Shown here: positions 33,992 to 40,853 of the stretch, one piece after another
Layout: every line of letters starts with the position of its first letter
How positions within the stretch are numbered: position 1 is the stretch's first letter
Origin: an uncultured Candidatus Saccharibacteria bacterium
Lineage (GTDB): Bacteria; Patescibacteriota; Doudnabacteria; UBA920
DNA: 64,000 bases
NCBI GenBank assembly: GCA_964348935.1
Contig: CAYGEJ010000004.1
Span: 4,538-68,537 of the forward strand
Direction of reading: 5' to 3'
Program-made: the position numbers and the translations under genes
The notes under the pieces: generated by a model
The model's database searches: none
Told to the model about the DNA's origin: nothing
The model's input: only the letters and a program-made list of their open reading frames with translations

Positions 33992-34024
33992 AAAAACCCT
34001 TCCGTTAACGGAAGGGTTTTTATT
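33992..34024. terminator. Bidirectional intrinsic terminator (AAAACCCTTCCG TTAA CGGAAGGGTTTT)
   Basis: 12-bp perfect inverted repeat. Confidence 0.65.
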
Positions 34025-34044
34025 ATATAATACTTTATATAATT

Positions 34045-34335
34045 TTATTTTTTAGGAAGTCCCCACTGCCAGCGAGGCGCTTCCCCTTTTTTATAACAAA
34101 TACGAATAAGGGTAATTGTTAGCAATATAATTGGCAGTAATGCAGTAAACAAAATTTCATTCTTTGGTGAATTATTATCTACTGTAAAAGCGAACACAAA
34201 CACTAACGCAATATAACCAAGTACTACTACCCAGCCTTGCCATGTTACTGGCGTCCAACCCCAACCATAAATTTTTCTTTTAAACCACAAGTGCTCAGGG
34301 TTATTTTTATAATACTCTACATAGTCTTTAAGCAT
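34045..34335 (-). CDS. Small membrane protein (96 aa), hypothetical
   Basis: Two TM helices. Upstream extended -10 element (TGTATAAT) on the minus strand. Confidence 0.5.
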   Translation of the reverse strand: MLKDYVEYYKNNPEHLWFKRKIYGWGWTPVTWQGWVVVLGYIALVFVFAFTVDNNSPKNEILFTALLPIILLTITLIRICYKKGEAPRWQWGLPKK

Positions 34336-34535
34336 ATATTTTTAGATTAATTATTAATATTTATAGGCTTACTTTGTTATATTATACATCAAGTTAACTG
34401 TGGACAACTCAACTTGAGTATGGTATAATAGTGGTACAAAAACCTGTCAACCGAACTGTCTACGTATGTGGGCGTGGCTAGGACAACTAGTCTAGGAACG
34501 TGGTTGGAAAATACCCTTAATTGGGTATTTTTTTA

Positions 34536-35159
34536 TTACCTAAATTTCCATTCATCTTCAATGTGTTTTTTAATTACTGATTTATAATCATTCGCATCAT
34601 TTTTACCAGAATAAGATCGGTTTATACTTCCTGCAATCATATCCGCCATTTGAATTAATACATTACTCTTAGAATCCTCCATTCTGCACTTCTTCATTAC
34701 TATTCTTTCTCTATTATTTAATTCTCTGCGTAAATAAGACAAAAAAGTTCTTCTAAAAACTCTATCCCCACTTCCGTCTATTTTAATTTTTGCATCTAAA
34801 ATTTTACCATCATTATGTTTTAATACCTCTTTGATAAAATAACTATAAAATTTATCTTTCTTAGTTTTTAATTCATCACTTCGAATTAAATTCTTTTCAA
34901 CCACCAATGTCCTCATACGAAAATTAAATGGCTTAATTTTATTTAAAAATTTTAATCTTATTTCACTATTCAGTTTAAAAAAGCGAAACTCTCTATAGTC
35001 AGCCCAACCCAATTCACTACGCAATTCTTTAATAGCAACTGCCACTTTCTCGGCTTCCAGCTCATCATCAAAAATAACCATTGCAATAATAAAAAAGTCC
35101 GTTGAGCCTTTTCCTAATTTAAATCCTGCATCTCCAGAATCATCTATAAAAACTAACAT
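34536..35159 (-). CDS. DUF3800 domain protein (last gene of the candidate defense operon)
   Basis: N-terminal MLVFIDDSGD motif and the C-terminal QMADMIAG motif typical of DUF3800. Confidence 0.65.
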   Translation of the reverse strand: MLVFIDDSGDAGFKLGKGSTDFFIIAMVIFDDELEAEKVAVAIKELRSELGWADYREFRFFKLNSEIRLKFLNKIKPFNFRMRTLVVEKNLIRSDELKTKKDKFYSYFIKEVLKHNDGKILDAKIKIDGSGDRVFRRTFLSYLRRELNNRERIVMKKCRMEDSKSNVLIQMADMIAGSINRSYSGKNDANDYKSVIKKHIEDEWKFR

Positions 35160-35189
35160 ATAAAACCTAATACTAAATTATTAATATAT

Positions 35190-35429
35190 CTACCTATGTG
35201 GGCAACCTGCCCAGCAACACGGCCGGCGCATTCCACCCGAAAGTTTAGATACCGCTTTTTCTATTCGTATTCCCCTAGTCTCTTGTTTCTTGCCACTAGT
35301 TACCCAACAAACCCATTCGTTCTTAGCCAATGGAGTAACACTCTCCCAAACCACCTTTGCCTTTGGGCTAGCCATAATAGCCTTACCCAAATCCCCAGGC
35401 ACACTATGTATTTTTTCTTTTTTGGTCAT
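35190..35429 (-). CDS. YdeI/OmpD-associated (bacteriocin-protection) family small protein
   Basis: PGDLGKAIMASPKAKVVWESVTPLAKNEWVCWVTSGKKQETRGIRIEKAVSKL matches the YdeI C-terminal family pattern. Start trimmed to MTKKEK to avoid overlap with the Mrr gene. Confidence 0.55.
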   Translation of the reverse strand: MTKKEKIHSVPGDLGKAIMASPKAKVVWESVTPLAKNEWVCWVTSGKKQETRGIRIEKAVSKLSGGMRRPCCWAGCPHR

Positions 35430-35439
35430 GGGATTTAAA

Positions 35440-36117
35440 TTAAATTTTTCTTGTACCTTTGCATTCTGGAAATTTTGAGCAGCCATAGAATTCACCAAAT
35501 TTTCCATTCCTTTTAACCATCGGGCTTTTACAAATTGGACATAAAATAGTTTCTGCTTTGCCAGGTATGGCAAAACTATCCATTTTTGCTTTTTCTAATA
35601 AATCTGCCAATTTAAAACCATCAATGAGTTCAATAGGTTTACTTTCGGCAAACTTTTCTGCTTCTAATGTAAATTTATTTGTTGTAATAAAAAAGCCTTT
35701 TGCCTGAGCTCCTTTATCTGCCATTGCTCCATAAAAATCCCTTACAGCACTAACAGGAACTTGCTGGGTAATAAATTTTTTACATTGGATATAATGTTTA
35801 ACTCCATTTTTTTCCGCTACTACATCTATTCCGCCATCATAAGCAGAGCCAGTTACTTCAACTATAAACCCAAGATTTTCAAACATATGGGCAATATATT
35901 GTTCAAATTCTTTTGGGCTTAAATCTTGTAACCATTTTATTAAACTTCTACCGCTTCTGTATTTTTCACCAATACTAAATTTTCTTTTTCTATTCCATGC
36001 GCCTATAATAACAGGTCCTATTTCACGAATTACCCAAACAACAATTATAAAAGCTAAAAACGGCCAAAAGGTTTTTAAAATATTTTCTATAACATTTCCC
36101 AAAAAATCTGGTTGCAT
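35440..36117 (-). CDS. Mrr-family (Mrr_cat) restriction endonuclease with an N-terminal TM helix and a C-terminal topoisomerase-type C4 zinc ribbon
   Basis: Mrr catalytic core (FENLGFIVEVTGSAYDGGIDVVAEKNGVKHYIQCKKF, D-x(n)-D/E-x-K-type). C-terminus CPICKSPMVKRNGKFGEFYGCSKFPECKG. Confidence 0.75.
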   Translation of the reverse strand: MQPDFLGNVIENILKTFWPFLAFIIVVWVIREIGPVIIGAWNRKRKFSIGEKYRSGRSLIKWLQDLSPKEFEQYIAHMFENLGFIVEVTGSAYDGGIDVVAEKNGVKHYIQCKKFITQQVPVSAVRDFYGAMADKGAQAKGFFITTNKFTLEAEKFAESKPIELIDGFKLADLLEKAKMDSFAIPGKAETILCPICKSPMVKRNGKFGEFYGCSKFPECKGTRKI

Positions 36118-36127
36118 AAAAATAAAA

Positions 36128-38152
36128 CTAAAGAATTTCTTGTACTATCCCTTGTACAATATCGCCATCATCAGGAACAATTGGAACATGTACAGGATTA
36201 TTACTTTTAGGTAATAAAATCCTTCGACCATCTCGTTTGTCATAATATTTTATAGTAACATTTTCACCACCCAATAAAGCAACAACCCTATCACCTGTTT
36301 GTCCTTTTTCTGAAAATCTACATAATACCAAATCTTGTTCATTTATACCTGCCATATTCATAGAATCGCCAACTGCCCTCACAATAAAATATTTACCGCC
36401 TGGTTTAAGTTTACTTTTTTCCACATTAATATATTCTTCAATATTTTCTTCACTAAGCAAAGGATTACCACATGGTGCTAAACCAACTAATGGTATTTTG
36501 ACCATTTCTTTAATTTTATCTACTAATTTTACTAAATTATGAGCTGGTATTACATGATCTAAATTTTGTTTTTTATGTTCATTAAAAATACTATTAAAAT
36601 AATTTCTAAGATTCAGATCTACAATATATACATATGTACCCATTATACCTCTAGTAAGTAGGGTCTTATAAATATTAATTATATATCTTTCAAGTTCATT
36701 TGGATCTGTAATACCGTTTCGCCCATTAATATCAAAATATTTTTCTTTATTCACCCCAAATTTTTTATTTATAGGATCGAAATAAAATTCAGGCCCTATA
36801 ATAACCCCAACATAATTTAAATCATACCCTTGAACAGTATGTATACAACCAATCTCATTTATAGCATTCGGAGAATTAACCCAATCTCTTGCTGTGGAAT
36901 TCCAAATCATTTTTAAACCTTCTATTTCAATATCGTAATCAACTAAACTTTTCTTGCCCTCCTTTGTATGCCATGGCCATGCATAGCCTGCCACAACTCT
37001 TGAAAGTTTGTGTAGCTGCTCCTTCTCCTTAATTTTATTTACCATATCTTCTGCATTTTCAAAAATTCTAAAATCATAATTTTGAAATATTGTAGTTTTA
37101 GGCTTCACTAAATTAAATATATCTTCTATAGCAGTAATGTATGTATCTCCTGCCTCAACACGCATTTGTATATTTAAGCCGTACTCTTTAGCTTTTAAAT
37201 TTTTAAAATCTTCAGGTCTAATGTCGGCAGGTTTTACTGTTTGATTCTCATCATAAAAAAAGATTTTATGCTTCGCTGATTTAATAACCCAATCAAGTTG
37301 TGTTCCTTCATTTCCGAAACCTAGAAATTGATTTACTTTATCAAAAGCACCAAAACCCATAATGCCTTTTCTACGTTGCAACCTATGTGATTCATCTACA
37401 ATTAAAACGTCGTATTTCTCCTTTACCACATCGTTTGGGCCTATAACCATATTCGCCTTCAAACCTTTAACTTTACTAAAGACTTTTTTTATTGTTGTGC
37501 GTAACGAAGCCATCGGCACAACTAATGCAATAGATAAATCTTTTGTCTCTTCCTGTTCTTTTAAGTATTTAAAAAGGTAAGTTGCAAGAATAGTCTTACC
37601 TGTACCAGGCTTCCCATTTACTATAAAAGTATTTTCATTATTCTTTTTAATATCATTAAAAATTTGTTTTACAACAAAAAACTGATCTTCGTTTAAAGAT
37701 TTATATGGGGAATATTTAAATAAATCACTATTTTTTATTACCTCCAATGGATTTACTACAACCCCCATTTCCATAAGCTTGGACCAAGCAATTTCAAATT
37801 TAGCTCTATACTTAAACCTGTCGTAGTAGTTATGATTCTTTAAGCCACCATTACCATTTTGAATAATATATTTTCCGTCAGCTGATATGTACTGAATAAG
37901 CCAAGACTCAATATCCAAAGCTGCAGAAACATTAAACTCCTCATCTGTAATAATATGAATTTCTTCTAATTTTCTTCTCTCTGGATTTTCATAATGTTGT
38001 TTACTTCTGTAATAGGCATTTACAGTCTGCCCAATATAAACCTCCTGTTTGTTTTCTAATACATAAACTACAGGCCAATTTCTACCAAAATTAAAATTTT
38101 TAATTTTGTCAAAATTGTCTTTATTATATTTAAATGTGACAATATTTGACAT
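36128..38152 (-). CDS. Tripartite fusion protein: N-terminal GIY-YIG nuclease domain, central P-loop DUF2075 (Schlafen-group-3-like helicase) NTPase, C-terminal LexA/UmuD-type S24 serine peptidase domain
   Basis: GIY-YIG: VYVLENKQEVYIGQTVNAYYRSKQH. Walker A GKPGTGKT at aa 180-187. Walker B VLIVDESHR at aa 248-257. S24: Cys561-Gly562 (APCGNP), Ser597 in AVGDSMNMAGI, Lys635 in VTIKYY. The Cys-to-Ser distance is 36 aa, from my recollection identical to the UmuD Cys24-Ser60 spacing. Confidence 0.8.
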   Translation of the reverse strand: MSNIVTFKYNKDNFDKIKNFNFGRNWPVVYVLENKQEVYIGQTVNAYYRSKQHYENPERRKLEEIHIITDEEFNVSAALDIESWLIQYISADGKYIIQNGNGGLKNHNYYDRFKYRAKFEIAWSKLMEMGVVVNPLEVIKNSDLFKYSPYKSLNEDQFFVVKQIFNDIKKNNENTFIVNGKPGTGKTILATYLFKYLKEQEETKDLSIALVVPMASLRTTIKKVFSKVKGLKANMVIGPNDVVKEKYDVLIVDESHRLQRRKGIMGFGAFDKVNQFLGFGNEGTQLDWVIKSAKHKIFFYDENQTVKPADIRPEDFKNLKAKEYGLNIQMRVEAGDTYITAIEDIFNLVKPKTTIFQNYDFRIFENAEDMVNKIKEKEQLHKLSRVVAGYAWPWHTKEGKKSLVDYDIEIEGLKMIWNSTARDWVNSPNAINEIGCIHTVQGYDLNYVGVIIGPEFYFDPINKKFGVNKEKYFDINGRNGITDPNELERYIINIYKTLLTRGIMGTYVYIVDLNLRNYFNSIFNEHKKQNLDHVIPAHNLVKLVDKIKEMVKIPLVGLAPCGNPLLSEENIEEYINVEKSKLKPGGKYFIVRAVGDSMNMAGINEQDLVLCRFSEKGQTGDRVVALLGGENVTIKYYDKRDGRRILLPKSNNPVHVPIVPDDGDIVQGIVQEIL

Positions 38153-38153
38153 T

Positions 38154-38501
38154 TTATAAATTTGTATACTTTGTATACTTACCCTTTGCCTTAACTACTG
38201 GATATTTTCTTTTATTTATTAACATCTTTTTATTAAAGGTCTTTACAATATCTATATTTAAATCCCAACTCATTAACAGCACCCAATATAATACATCTGC
38301 TAATTCTGCAGCAATATCATTTTTATTTTCTTTTACATATTTTTCAAGCTCTGTATTATTTTTCCATTGAAAATGTTCTAAAACTTCAGTTGCCTCCAAA
38401 ACCAAAGACAATGCAGAATCTTTTGGATTATGAAACTGTTTCCAGTTTCTTGCATTTCTGAAATCTAGAATACTTTTCGTTAATTTTTTAATTTCTGACA
38501 T
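38154..38501 (-). CDS. MazG-like nucleoside triphosphate pyrophosphohydrolase (small all-alpha NTP-PPase)
   Basis: RNWKQFHNPKDSALSLVLEATEVLEHFQW and AAELADVLYWVLLMS. The EExxE/D metal-binding helices of the MazG/dCTPase family. Confidence 0.7.
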   Translation of the reverse strand: MSEIKKLTKSILDFRNARNWKQFHNPKDSALSLVLEATEVLEHFQWKNNTELEKYVKENKNDIAAELADVLYWVLLMSWDLNIDIVKTFNKKMLINKRKYPVVKAKGKYTKYTNL

Positions 38502-38505
38502 AAAC

Positions 38506-38700
38506 TTACTTTTTCTTAATGGGTTTCTTTTTCCAGTCGCTAATAATTAGCTTGGTTCCTTTTTTTATTACTACTACCTTCTGCTTTTCTTTCCAACCTA
38601 ATTCTTTTACAAACTCAATAGGAAGGCTAACGACTAGGCTTTTGCCTGCCATTTTCATTAGCTTGCGAATATTGCGGTTTTCTAGGGTTTGGGTGGACAT
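38506..38700 (-). CDS. AbrB/MazE/SpoVT-family swapped-hairpin DNA-binding protein (antitoxin-like regulator)
   Basis: KSLVVSLPIEFVKELGWKEKQKVVV. 64 aa with a basic tail. Ends 4 nt before the MazG-like start. Confidence 0.65.
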   Translation of the reverse strand: MSTQTLENRNIRKLMKMAGKSLVVSLPIEFVKELGWKEKQKVVVIKKGTKLIISDWKKKPIKKK

Positions 38701-38703
38701 AGT

Positions 38704-38799
38704 AGATATAAGATTTAGGATATAAGATGTAAGATTTAAAAACAGGGAACAACGGATTTAGCTTGCCTACCTTCGGTAGGGATGTAAGATATAAGATTT
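38704..38799. repeat. Two clusters of tandem heptad repeats (GATRTAA on +, TTAYATC on -) flanking a UUCG-tetraloop hairpin (CCTACC TTCG GTAGG). Immediately upstream of the AbrB-like gene.
   Basis: 38704-38738 GATATAAGATTTAGGATATAAGATGTAAGATTT. 38781-38799 GATGTAAGATATAAGATTT. Hairpin 38766-38780. Confidence 0.6.
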
Positions 38800-39164
38800 G
38801 GGAACAAATGCGCTGGCAGGCGGGAGATTTGAATTCTATTATATAATGTATTATATAATAGTTTTAACTAAGTAAAAAGTGGTTGAGTTTTGCCTTAATT
38901 TTTAGACAACAAAAAATACTTTTTAACGATAATGGTACCCATAAACGTGAAATAATTAGAAAATAACCTCACCCTGCCCCTGCCTACCGGACAGGCAGGC
39001 TCTCCTCTTCCTACTTCGCCAAGGCTATGATGGACAAGAGGCTATGGCGGATCTTCGAGCAAGGAGAGGAATTTTGCATATAAACAACCTAGACAACAAC
39101 TCCCCTGTTCTGGTAATATTAGTCAGTTCCAAAAATCCAAAAACACTAGCCCCAAGGAGGCAGT

Positions 39165-39671
39165 ATGAGTTATGGTTTAACCGACCTTACCAGCGGTAAA
39201 GAAGTCGATACAAACTTTATTGGATATCAGCCGATGACCGGTATACGCATTGGCGAAGACCAATTCGACTGGGAAAACATGTGCAAGGTATTTTTGCACG
39301 TTTTCGTGAAAGTTTCGATGAATGCAATTCCTCAAATTGTGCAAGAGGTTCTAATGAAGCTGCACAAGGATTACCAACCCATTCAAAGCAGCTTCCAACT
39401 CTCACGCCATGCCCCAGTTTCCCAGGAGCCCGGGCAGTTTTGCAACATCAACAGCGTTGGCCAAAAAGCTTTCTGCGTAACAGTTGACGAAGACTGCCAC
39501 AAAGTGCGCTTTGGTCTCTACATCTTCAGCGTCAACGACTTCTGCTGCTTCGCATACCACATAATTTCCGGCGGGTTTCACGGAATCACGCCAACCCCGC
39601 AAGCGGTGAACAAACTCCTCAACAGCCTGTTCGCCAACTTCCACCCCATGTGGATTCGTCCGCGAATGTAA
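39165..39671 (+). CDS. Hypothetical protein (168 aa) in a GC-rich islet, Cys-rich
   Basis: Strong RBS AAGGAGG 6 nt upstream. Downstream hairpin + T-tract. About 50% GC versus AT-rich flanks. No motif recognised. Competing minus-strand ORFs lack RBS. Confidence 0.4.
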   Translation: MSYGLTDLTSGKEVDTNFIGYQPMTGIRIGEDQFDWENMCKVFLHVFVKVSMNAIPQIVQEVLMKLHKDYQPIQSSFQLSRHAPVSQEPGQFCNINSVGQKAFCVTVDEDCHKVRFGLYIFSVNDFCCFAYHIISGGFHGITPTPQAVNKLLNSLFANFHPMWIRPRM

Positions 39672-39731
39672 CTCACACCCCCACTACCTTCACACCCGCG
39701 CAAAGATTAATTTCGATGCCGGGTGTATTTT

Positions 39732-40853
39732 TTATCTAATAGATTCATAACCACCAACAACACCATTTTTAGTTAGAACTATTTGCCACAACTGAGTTGC
39801 TCTTGCTCTAAAAAGACCAGCACAGGAAAGTAAATAATATTTCCACATTCTATAAAACTTTTCATCGTAATCATTTTTTATTTCCGGCCAAGATTCTTCG
39901 AACTTTGAAAACCAAGCTAACAATGTTTTGTCATAATCTGCGCCAAAATTATGCCAATCTTCAATTATAAATATATTATCTATTGCTTCACAAATTTGTT
40001 TCGCCCCTGGCAATTGTCCATTTGGAAATATATATTTGTCTAGCCAAGGGTCTGATGAATCTATAATTTTTGAACTTTTGGCTCCAATGGTGTGCAATAA
40101 AAATATTCCGTCATCTGTTAGGTTTTTACTTACAACCTTCATATACTCTCTATAATTCTTATTCCCTACTGCTTCCAACATTCCAATAGAAACAATTCTG
40201 TCATAGGTTCCATTTAATTCTCTATAATCTTGAAAAATAAATTCAATGGGCAATCCTTGGCATATTTTTTTTCCTAATTCAATTTGTGATGGTGAAATAG
40301 TAATACCCACACAACTCACACCATAATTTTCTACTGCGTACTTCATAAAACTTCCCCACCCACATCCTATATCTAAAATTCGCATACCCTTCTGCAAACC
40401 TATTTTTTTACAAATAAGTTCAAATTTTGCAATTTGGGCATCGTCTATATTCTTTGCTGTTTTCCAGTAACCACATGTATACCCCATAGTGGCACCGAGC
40501 ATTTTAGAATAGAGCTTATTGCCAATATCATAATGTTTTAAATCAAAAACTTCTTTTTGTGTTTGTAAATTAAATAGTTTGTTTTTTACAAAGTGAAGTA
40601 TTAACGGTAAATTATATTTCACTTTAGTATTTAAATCGGCGCGCATCATTTTAAAAAAAAGTTGATCCAAAGCTTTACATTCCCATAACCCTTCCACATA
40701 TGTTTCCCCAAGACCCAAACTACCCTGACTTAAAACTCTTCCATAAACAGAATCGCAAAGAATTTGTATATCCCAATCTCTTTTACCATTTATCTCTATA
40801 TCCGCTTGTAATAATAATTCAGATACTATTTGTTTTTCTTTTGAATATTTCAT
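39732..40853 (-). CDS. cfa: Cyclopropane-fatty-acyl-phospholipid synthase family SAM-dependent methyltransferase
   Basis: ILDIGCGWGSFMKYAVENYGVSCVGITIS SAM motif and CFA-synthase N- and C-terminal architecture. 373 aa. Confidence 0.8.
   Translation of the reverse strand: MKYSKEKQIVSELLLQADIEINGKRDWDIQILCDSVYGRVLSQGSLGLGETYVEGLWECKALDQLFFKMMRADLNTKVKYNLPLILHFVKNKLFNLQTQKEVFDLKHYDIGNKLYSKMLGATMGYTCGYWKTAKNIDDAQIAKFELICKKIGLQKGMRILDIGCGWGSFMKYAVENYGVSCVGITISPSQIELGKKICQGLPIEFIFQDYRELNGTYDRIVSIGMLEAVGNKNYREYMKVVSKNLTDDGIFLLHTIGAKSSKIIDSSDPWLDKYIFPNGQLPGAKQICEAIDNIFIIEDWHNFGADYDKTLLAWFSKFEESWPEIKNDYDEKFYRMWKYYLLSCAGLFRARATQLWQIVLTKNGVVGGYESIR

Follow-up and report, generated by a model that had tools for sequence, protein, structure and literature searches.

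A conserved MazG-like and GIY-YIG/DUF2075 gene pair in a probable defence island of a candidate phyla radiation bacterium

The window analysed here is a 64-kb stretch of contig CAYGEJ010000004.1, and the subject of this work is a run of six genes on its minus strand between 34536 and 38700. A first-pass annotation had read this run as one tightly coupled composite defence system, made up of an AbrB/MazE-like protein, a MazG-like pyrophosphatase, a GIY-YIG/DUF2075/S24 fusion, an Mrr-family endonuclease, a YdeI-like protein and a DUF3800 protein. All six open reading frames (ORFs) are present (6/6) and co-oriented, and the domains assigned to them are confirmed by coordinates and Pfam. The conserved multi-gene unit consists of the MazG-like and DUF2075 genes, a translationally coupled pair at 36128-38501 and the only such unit in the island. 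The features of the locus are listed below.

36128-38152, minus strand: GIY-YIG/DUF2075/S24 fusion protein, 674 amino acids (aa); Pfam GIY-YIG weak, SLFN-g3_helicase 6e-65, Peptidase_S24 5e-18
37850-38074, minus strand: GIY-YIG nuclease domain of the fusion, residues 27-101; Pfam and invariant motif residues
36617-37630, minus strand: DUF2075/Schlafen-group-3 superfamily 1 (SF1) helicase core of the fusion, residues 175-512; Pfam 6e-65
36176-36493, minus strand: LexA/UmuD-type S24 autoproteolytic domain of the fusion, residues 554-659; Pfam 5e-18
36467-36472, minus strand: predicted self-cleavage site Cys561-Gly562; alignment with LexA Ala84-Gly85
38154-38501, minus strand: MazG-like nucleoside triphosphate (NTP) pyrophosphohydrolase, 115 aa; Pfam PF12643 51.4 bits, cutoff 27
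38506-38700, minus strand: AbrB/MazE-fold small protein, 64 aa; Pfam MazE_antitoxin 32.5 bits
35440-36117, minus strand: Mrr-type PD-(D/E)XK endonuclease with zinc ribbon; Pfam Mrr_cat 5e-30, Zn_ribbon_Top1 3e-13
35190-35429, minus strand: YdeI/OmdA-domain small protein; Pfam OmdA 7e-16
34536-35159, minus strand: DUF3800 protein; Pfam 1e-16
34505-34531, minus strand: terminator-like hairpin after the DUF3800 gene; -11.6 kcal/mol, z -3.1 against shuffles, followed by UUUU
33992-34024, both strands: strong bidirectional terminator hairpin; -23.9 kcal/mol on each strand, z -6.3 against shuffles
38838-38867, minus strand: promoter-like site upstream of the first gene; TTAAAA-18-TATAAT, 10/12, consensus match only

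The intergenic gaps along the six genes, taken from the coordinates, are 4, 1, 10, 10 and 30 nucleotides (nt), which bears out the proposed tight packing and makes co-transcription plausible. Tight packing in the compact genome of a candidate phyla radiation (CPR) bacterium does not, however, make a system, and co-occurrence was examined in two samples of loci. For the first, 80 genome loci that encode a homolog of the 674-aa protein were taken (43-75% identity, flanks of up to 8 kb), these being the top-scoring of at least 587. The underlying genome scan was run with an alignment as query, the single protein sequence having given no matches. The window proteins were searched in these core loci by tblastn, and the 1388 ORFs of the loci were clustered into families. 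The MazG-like gene adjoins the DUF2075 gene in 79 of the 80 loci, the exception (L047) being cut at a contig end; it is usually the upstream partner, and the two genes are as a rule 0-5 nt apart or overlap slightly. Among the clustered families, DUF2075 is found in 80/80 loci and the MazG-like protein in 79/80, while the next commonest family reaches 13/80. An iterated hidden Markov model search (jackhmmer) placed an AbrB gene upstream of the MazG-like gene in 3 of 79 core loci, and the order AbrB-MazG-DUF2075 recurs in L034, L043 and L073. A full-length Mrr homolog is present in one core locus of 80 (L044), directly downstream of the DUF2075 gene, YdeI is present in 2/80, and DUF3800 was found by tblastn in 0/80.

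The second sample comprised 80 metagenome loci around homologs of the Mrr/zinc-ribbon protein. YdeI and DUF3800 were each found in 0/80 of them and AbrB in 1/80; the MazG/DUF2075 pair was near the Mrr homolog in 5/80, on either side of it and with variable order and orientation. This pattern argues for co-residence in defence islands and not for a fixed architecture. Four of the six families are without conserved co-occurrence, and the six-gene model therefore fails: in the 80 + 80 loci only the MazG-like/DUF2075 pair is conserved, and AbrB, Mrr, YdeI and DUF3800 are not co-conserved with it.

The pair is widespread. In the genome scan with the alignment, at least 587 species-level genomes, mostly CPR, carried the family, which comprises 437 representatives after clustering at 50% identity (E<=1e-30), and the nuclease-helicase is 65-77% identical across CPR lineages. 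The Bacillus cereus plasmid pC1L1 encodes a 'nucleotide pyrophosphohydrolase' (44% identical) and, directly after it, a GIY-YIG/DUF2075 protein (35% identical), and a human-gut 'phage' scaffold has the pair in the same arrangement. Among 2.9 million viral contigs, 5 carry the pair; in two of these (L174, 3119-5031; L175, 3451-5363) the DUF2075 gene comes first and the MazG-like gene second, and the two are still adjacent. When homologs of the MazG-like gene were taken as the starting point, an intact helicase+S24 gene directly followed 2 of the 4 that were sampled, and fragments or an insertion sequence (IS) element followed the other 2. In L167 and L168 (3501-4538) the MazG-like gene is followed by a 102-aa HSDR_N-like fragment, and in L169 (3501-5825) a 282-aa ORF comes next, with an IS (rve) transposase beyond it; the partners of these MazG-like genes are apparently decayed or disrupted.

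A 782-aa variant, one of the intact helicase+S24 partners just described and encoded in L165 (3854-6199, plus strand) and L166, combines a weak PD-(D/E)XK N-terminus with the DUF2075 helicase and S24. Its MazG-like gene is 71% identical to that of the window while the helicases are only 35% identical. Just upstream are a Fic-domain gene and a 62-aa ORF, an arrangement shared by L167 and L168. Because adjacency is kept with this PD-(D/E)XK-type partner (L165), the linkage is to the helicase core and not to one nuclease type. Judged from these architectures, the nuclease head and the S24 tail appear to be exchangeable modules on the DUF2075 helicase. Two further families were observed near the pair. 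Directly downstream of it in L023, L043 and L073 lies a second DUF2075 protein of 657 aa, which has a PD-(D/E)XK-like N-terminus and lacks a MazG partner; PADLOC PDC-S41 is matched by one of these neighbours, at 4e-287. A PemK/MazF-like protein of 130 aa, extended at its N-terminus (family F3), is found within 8 kb of the pair in 11/80 loci, usually upstream and with no obvious antitoxin ORF adjoining it.

The 674-aa protein has the architecture of the Nhi type, in which an N-terminal nuclease is joined to an SF1 helicase of the DUF2075 family whose Walker A and B motifs are intact. Its GIY-YIG match is weak (Pfam E 0.0056); in three close homologs (P0070, P0089 and P0109) the domain lies above the Pfam cutoff of 22.6, at 25 bits. 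Residues Y30, Y39, G41, R49, H53, E82 and N99 of the motif are invariant in 78/78 proteins, and the domain has the beta-beta-alpha-beta-alpha topology in a structure model. When the family was compared by hhalign with a single bona fide GIY-YIG protein the motifs were aligned and the score was not significant, and among Protein Data Bank sequences the family profile matched only LexA/UmuD and no nuclease or helicase structure. The helicase residues Walker A K186, DExH 253-256, Q304, R331, Q441 and R501 are invariant across the 78 pairs.

The lengths of the 78 proteins are bimodal: 35, of 520-548 aa, are without S24, and 43, of 668-716 aa, carry it. In the window protein the S24 domain scores 65.4 bits in Pfam (cutoff 23.3), and structures of LexA and UmuD are matched by the family profile, with values from 5e-15 to 7e-10. 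Cys561-Gly562 aligns with Ala84-Gly85 of Escherichia coli LexA, the GDSM Ser597 with LexA Ser119 and K635 with LexA Lys156, and all of these are invariant in 43/43 S24-bearing homologs. A Cys-Gly scissile bond is the UmuD type of site, and self-cleavage at Cys561-Gly562 is predicted. The protein is not LexA proper. The NCBIfam lexA model gives 69 bits against a cutoff of 111, over residues 547-670 only, the UmuD cutoff is likewise not reached, and the N-terminal winged helix-turn-helix (HTH) repressor domain is absent, its place being taken by the nuclease-helicase. In a rough neighbor-joining tree of the helicase core S24 has been gained or lost at least 14 times, which fits an accessory regulatory module. 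A search of the 64-kb window for recA, with an approximate E. coli RecA sequence as query, found none.

The MazG-like protein finds its best solved relatives in the 4qgp pyrophosphatase (1e-16) and the dCTP pyrophosphatase DCTPP1/RS21-C6 (1e-15). Its residues E36, E39, E42, E66 and D69, which form the EXXE...EXXD metal-binding motif, are invariant in 78/78 pair partners. We conclude that it is, by homology, a DCTPP1-type all-alpha NTP pyrophosphohydrolase. Enzymes of the DCTPP1 type are house-cleaning enzymes.

The other four genes can each be placed outside the pair. The AbrB-fold protein is probably a local regulator or an orphan antitoxin, an occasional accessory and not part of the core. 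A tblastn search with CPR PemK found no MazF/PemK in the window, and the gene that follows the MazE-fold gene is the MazG-like one. We considered the AbrB-MazG arrangement as a remnant of mazEFG and rejected it, since the window lacks a MazF gene and no more than 3/79 loci have AbrB. The Mrr protein, of about 225 aa, has an N-terminal hydrophobic segment, an Mrr_cat domain (104 bits) and a C-terminal topoisomerase-type zinc ribbon, an architecture shared by 721 homologs of about the same length that form a stand-alone family in CPR and DPANN. Across 25 homologs, residues D94, D98, Q111 and K113 never vary, Pfam gives no match to the Mrr_N winged-helix DNA-recognition domain in the window's protein, and the PADLOC mREase_IV models match over the nuclease part only. 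From its domains this protein is a predicted Type-IV-like nuclease, independent of the pair. The DUF3800 protein matches PADLOC PDC-M04A at 1.5e-11; no other PDC-M04 components were found by PADLOC among the six neighbours and no relative of the protein in viral contigs. Judged from the two samples of loci, it is an independent single gene, a separate passenger.

The YdeI/OmdA protein has no PADLOC or PHROG match and is, judged from the same samples, an unrelated passenger, without defence signal. Its start is ambiguous: the ATG at 35429 gives 79 aa and a 10-nt gap, and that at 35486, the choice of the gene caller, gives 98 aa with a 47-nt overlap into the Mrr gene. The Pfam match is the same either way, and neither start has a clear Shine-Dalgarno sequence.

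The two terminators by which the run had been said to be delimited, at 33992-34024 and 34505-34531, both fold far better than shuffled sequences. The former lies between the gene for a 96-aa membrane protein and a deoxyhypusine-synthase-like gene. Neither is listed by a simple terminator pattern scan, which likewise shows no minus-strand site of this kind inside the six-gene run. Promoter-like matches in a pattern scan are overall at chance level, 21 found against 26 expected. A perfect 12-nt palindrome, CTATTATATAAT/ATTATATAATAG at 38836-38861, overlaps the -10 element of the promoter-like site, and runs of an AGATNTA heptad (plus-strand reading) at 38704-38744 and 38780-38806 lie directly upstream of the AbrB-like start codon. 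The heptad runs and the palindrome may be candidate operator sites for the AbrB-fold protein.

The setting among housekeeping genes was also borne out, with a cyclopropane-fatty-acid (cfa) synthase, rpoD and dnaG on one side and the deoxyhypusine-synthase-like gene and an agmatine deiminase on the other. The G+C content (GC) is 0.30-0.36 over 34001-39000 and 0.39-0.43 in the flanks; because of this low GC, the 34-39 kb stretch looks horizontally acquired. The close relatives of the island genes are all from Patescibacteria/CPR metagenome-assembled genomes (MAGs), which points to a CPR (Paceibacteria-like) source.

Upstream of the island, a 168-aa ORF (39165-39671, plus strand) has a strong AAGGAGG ribosome-binding site and is also predicted by the gene caller. 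It is divergent from the first gene of the island and convergent with the cfa-like gene, the GC around it is 43%, compared with about 30% for the adjoining island, and it has no match in Pfam, NCBIfam, PHROG or Rfam. Rfam scans of the whole window, and permissively of 38650-39760, gave two tRNAs elsewhere and only a chance MicF match, so the GC-rich gap upstream of the island is not a known RNA. Within the low-GC stretch, the 96-aa protein (34045-34335, minus strand) has two membrane helices and belongs to no family. Homologs of it (48-67% identity) lie 2-7 kb downstream of the MazG/DUF2075 pair in L007, L025, L032 and L034, a recurrence in four loci that is not clearly above chance.

The character of the neighbourhoods bears on the function of the pair. 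The 140 ORFs within 1.5 kb of it match 190 PADLOC families (E<=1e-5) and 140 ORFs at least 5 kb away match 61, a comparison that is semi-quantitative because families and not proteins were counted and the models are redundant. The matches near the pair include mREase_IV (4e-226), ThsB (9e-74), DruM, Type I S, AriA and Type II restriction. Recurrent neighbours are PemK, NERD, MrcB_N+NucS_C, HNH, XRE-SocA/Panacea and the PDC-S41-like DUF2075 protein, and the neighbourhoods are variable, with no conserved flanks. The nuclease-helicase itself matches PADLOC Nhi/AbiO in part (residues 143-378, model positions 174-374 of 470, E 9e-14). Taken with the domain composition, this suggests that the MazG-like/nuclease-helicase pair is probably an anti-phage module. 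For the locus as a whole, we favour, with some reserve, an island of independent, co-oriented defence modules with the Nhi-like pair as its core over a six-component machine.

A mechanism can be proposed for this module. The nuclease-helicase would act like Nhi and Nhi-like, unwinding and cutting phage DNA or replication intermediates, and the C-terminal LexA/UmuD-type S24 domain, where present, would restrain or tether it. RecA filaments on single-stranded DNA, formed during phage replication or after DNA damage, may then trigger S24 self-cleavage at Cys561-Gly562. The MazG-like partner is predicted to hydrolyse canonical or modified deoxynucleoside triphosphates (dNTPs), which would either starve phage DNA synthesis or keep the substrate of the nuclease out of host DNA. 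In its fullest form, the proposal is that the pair is an immune effector set off by RecA filaments, in which a bacterial relative of the SLFN11 helicase is tied by its LexA-type domain to the sensing of DNA damage or replication stress. On phage replication the protein would cut itself at the Cys-Gly bond and destroy the DNA being copied, and the MazG-like enzyme would at the same time collapse or clean the dNTP pool; the pair would be a main defence of the CRISPR-poor CPR and a mechanistic parallel to human SLFN11. We put this full version forward only tentatively, and as a whole it may well be wrong.

Several points weigh against a defensive reading. Of the first-pass claim that every component is individually defence-associated, PADLOC bears out three cases, through the partial Nhi/AbiO match, PDC-S02/mREase_IV for the Mrr protein and PDC-M04A for DUF3800; YdeI and the MazG-like protein have no PADLOC match of any kind. 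S24, GIY-YIG, SF1 helicase and MazG domains are hallmarks of DNA repair and the SOS response as well. SG192 from Bacillus firmus, the only pyrophosphatase+DUF2075 pair to have been assayed, gave no protection in the screen of Millman et al. 2022. The sequence alone is silent on whether S24 cleavage would activate, inactivate or relocalise the enzyme. The structure model is of moderate quality (pLDDT 66.8), and the 80 core loci, picked by score, come mostly from CPR MAGs, some bins of which may be contaminated.

The strongest alternative is that the pair is an SOS-type module for DNA-damage repair or nucleotide sanitation and does not serve immunity. The MazG-like enzyme would clear damaged or modified dNTPs, the GIY-YIG/helicase protein would handle lesions or stalled forks, and S24 would couple it to RecA in the manner of UmuD. 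The S24 domain is indeed closest to LexA and UmuD, GIY-YIG is the nuclease fold of UvrC and Cho, the SF1 helicase resembles UvrD, Rep and HelD, and DCTPP1-type enzymes do house-cleaning. The very high conservation across CPR lineages (65-77% identity) and the lack of phage protection by the B. firmus pair would fit as well. Against this stand the patchy distribution of the pair without conserved flanks, a neighbourhood richer in defence models than distal DNA, its presence on Bacillus megaplasmids and a few viral contigs, and the repeated gain or loss of S24 (at least 14 times in the rough tree), which would be unusual for a core repair function. We consider a repair role unlikely.

A selfish, toxin-antitoxin-like addiction pair, with the nuclease-helicase as toxin held in check by the MazG-like enzyme or by the S24 tail, and persisting through addiction and not through any benefit, seems more improbable still. 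The coupling is tight with the small gene usually first, toxin-antitoxin genes (PemK, SocA/Panacea) are frequent neighbours, and an AbrB/MazE-fold gene lies upstream in the window. The invariant catalytic residues of the MazG-like protein, however, favour an enzymatic role over that of a purely stoichiometric antitoxin. The failed cloning of a related pair from B. thuringiensis, SG193, would fit toxicity, but many defence systems are toxic when cloned and a single failure is weak evidence. That all six genes cooperate as a single composite defence system is the least credible alternative, with hardly any chance of being right: co-orientation, gaps of 1-30 nt, no internal terminator-like site, a single upstream promoter-like site, the Mrr homolog directly downstream of DUF2075 in L044, the pair near Mrr homologs in 5/80 loci and the AbrB-MazG-DUF2075 order of L034, L043 and L073 are set against DUF3800 in 0/160 loci, YdeI in 2/160, AbrB in 4/160 and Mrr in 1/80, against variable order and orientation wherever Mrr and the pair co-occur, and against the abundance of Mrr and of the pair each alone.

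We return to the anti-phage reading and compare the pair with known systems. Nhi of Staphylococcus epidermidis (SERP2475) and Nhi-like of Bacillus cereus (SG141) are validated anti-phage nuclease+DUF2075 proteins, and like the 674-aa protein they have an N-terminal nuclease fused to a DUF2075 SF1 helicase. They differ in that their nuclease is of the PD-(D/E)XK type where ours is GIY-YIG, and the Nhi model is only partly matched. For Nhi a single gene suffices, whereas in the window family a MazG-like neighbour is obligate and about half of the members carry an S24 tail. The small MazG-type pyrophosphatase beside a DUF2075 protein is shared with two 'Pyrophosphatase' candidates in the supplement of Millman et al. 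2022, SG192 (B. firmus LK28), whose pyrophosphatase is 44% identical to that of the window, and SG193 (B. thuringiensis Lr3/2); in SG192 the N-terminus of the partner is of the PD-(D/E)XK type, and S24 is absent. The score of SG192 was 'x' (no defence) and the cloning of SG193 failed; neither is named or discussed in the main text of that paper.

GIY-YIG-DUF2075 fusions have already been noted in the literature, and in the papers searched we found no description of a DUF2075+MazG, MazG+Nhi or Schlafen+GIY-YIG pairing or of an S24-fused helicase in defence. The first-pass view that the combination is undescribed thus needs to be narrowed: the pyrophosphatase+DUF2075 pairing appears to be known solely as an unverified candidate in that supplement, and it is the S24 fusion that appears undescribed.

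Other likenesses concern single parts of the locus. With Type IV Mrr and PDC-S02/mREase_IV the window shares the Mrr_cat PD-(D/E)XK domain, in the separate 225-aa gene only, and this gene has a hydrophobic segment and a topoisomerase-type zinc ribbon in place of Mrr_N. In the E. coli mazE-mazF-mazG operon, as in the window, a MazE-fold gene precedes a MazG-type gene; unlike that operon, the window has no MazF, and AbrB/MazE accompanies the pair in only 3/79 loci. E. coli MazG is also larger, with its domains in tandem. The MazG-like protein of the window shares with DCTPP1/RS21-C6 the all-alpha MazG fold and its EXXE...EXXD motif. Human SLFN11 (Schlafen group III) has a Schlafen/AlbA_2 RNase domain that the window protein lacks, and the published work on Schlafen defence proteins of bacteria deals with that RNase domain and not with the DUF2075-type helicase; we infer that the DNA-damage-sensing parallel with SLFN11 would here run through S24. 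With LexA, UmuD and lambda CI the protein shares the S24 fold and the Ser-Lys dyad, and with UmuD the Cys-Gly bond. It differs from them in having no N-terminal HTH and in carrying a 560-residue nuclease-helicase as cargo.

Set beside these systems, the pair is a widespread two-gene module that couples a nucleotide pyrophosphatase to a Schlafen-type helicase-nuclease with every active site conserved, and in about half of its members an intact LexA/UmuD self-cleavage module sits on an effector enzyme and not on a repressor. If S24 does read RecA filaments, it would link the SOS signal directly to a nuclease effector, and this would bear on defence in bacteria that are mostly without CRISPR.

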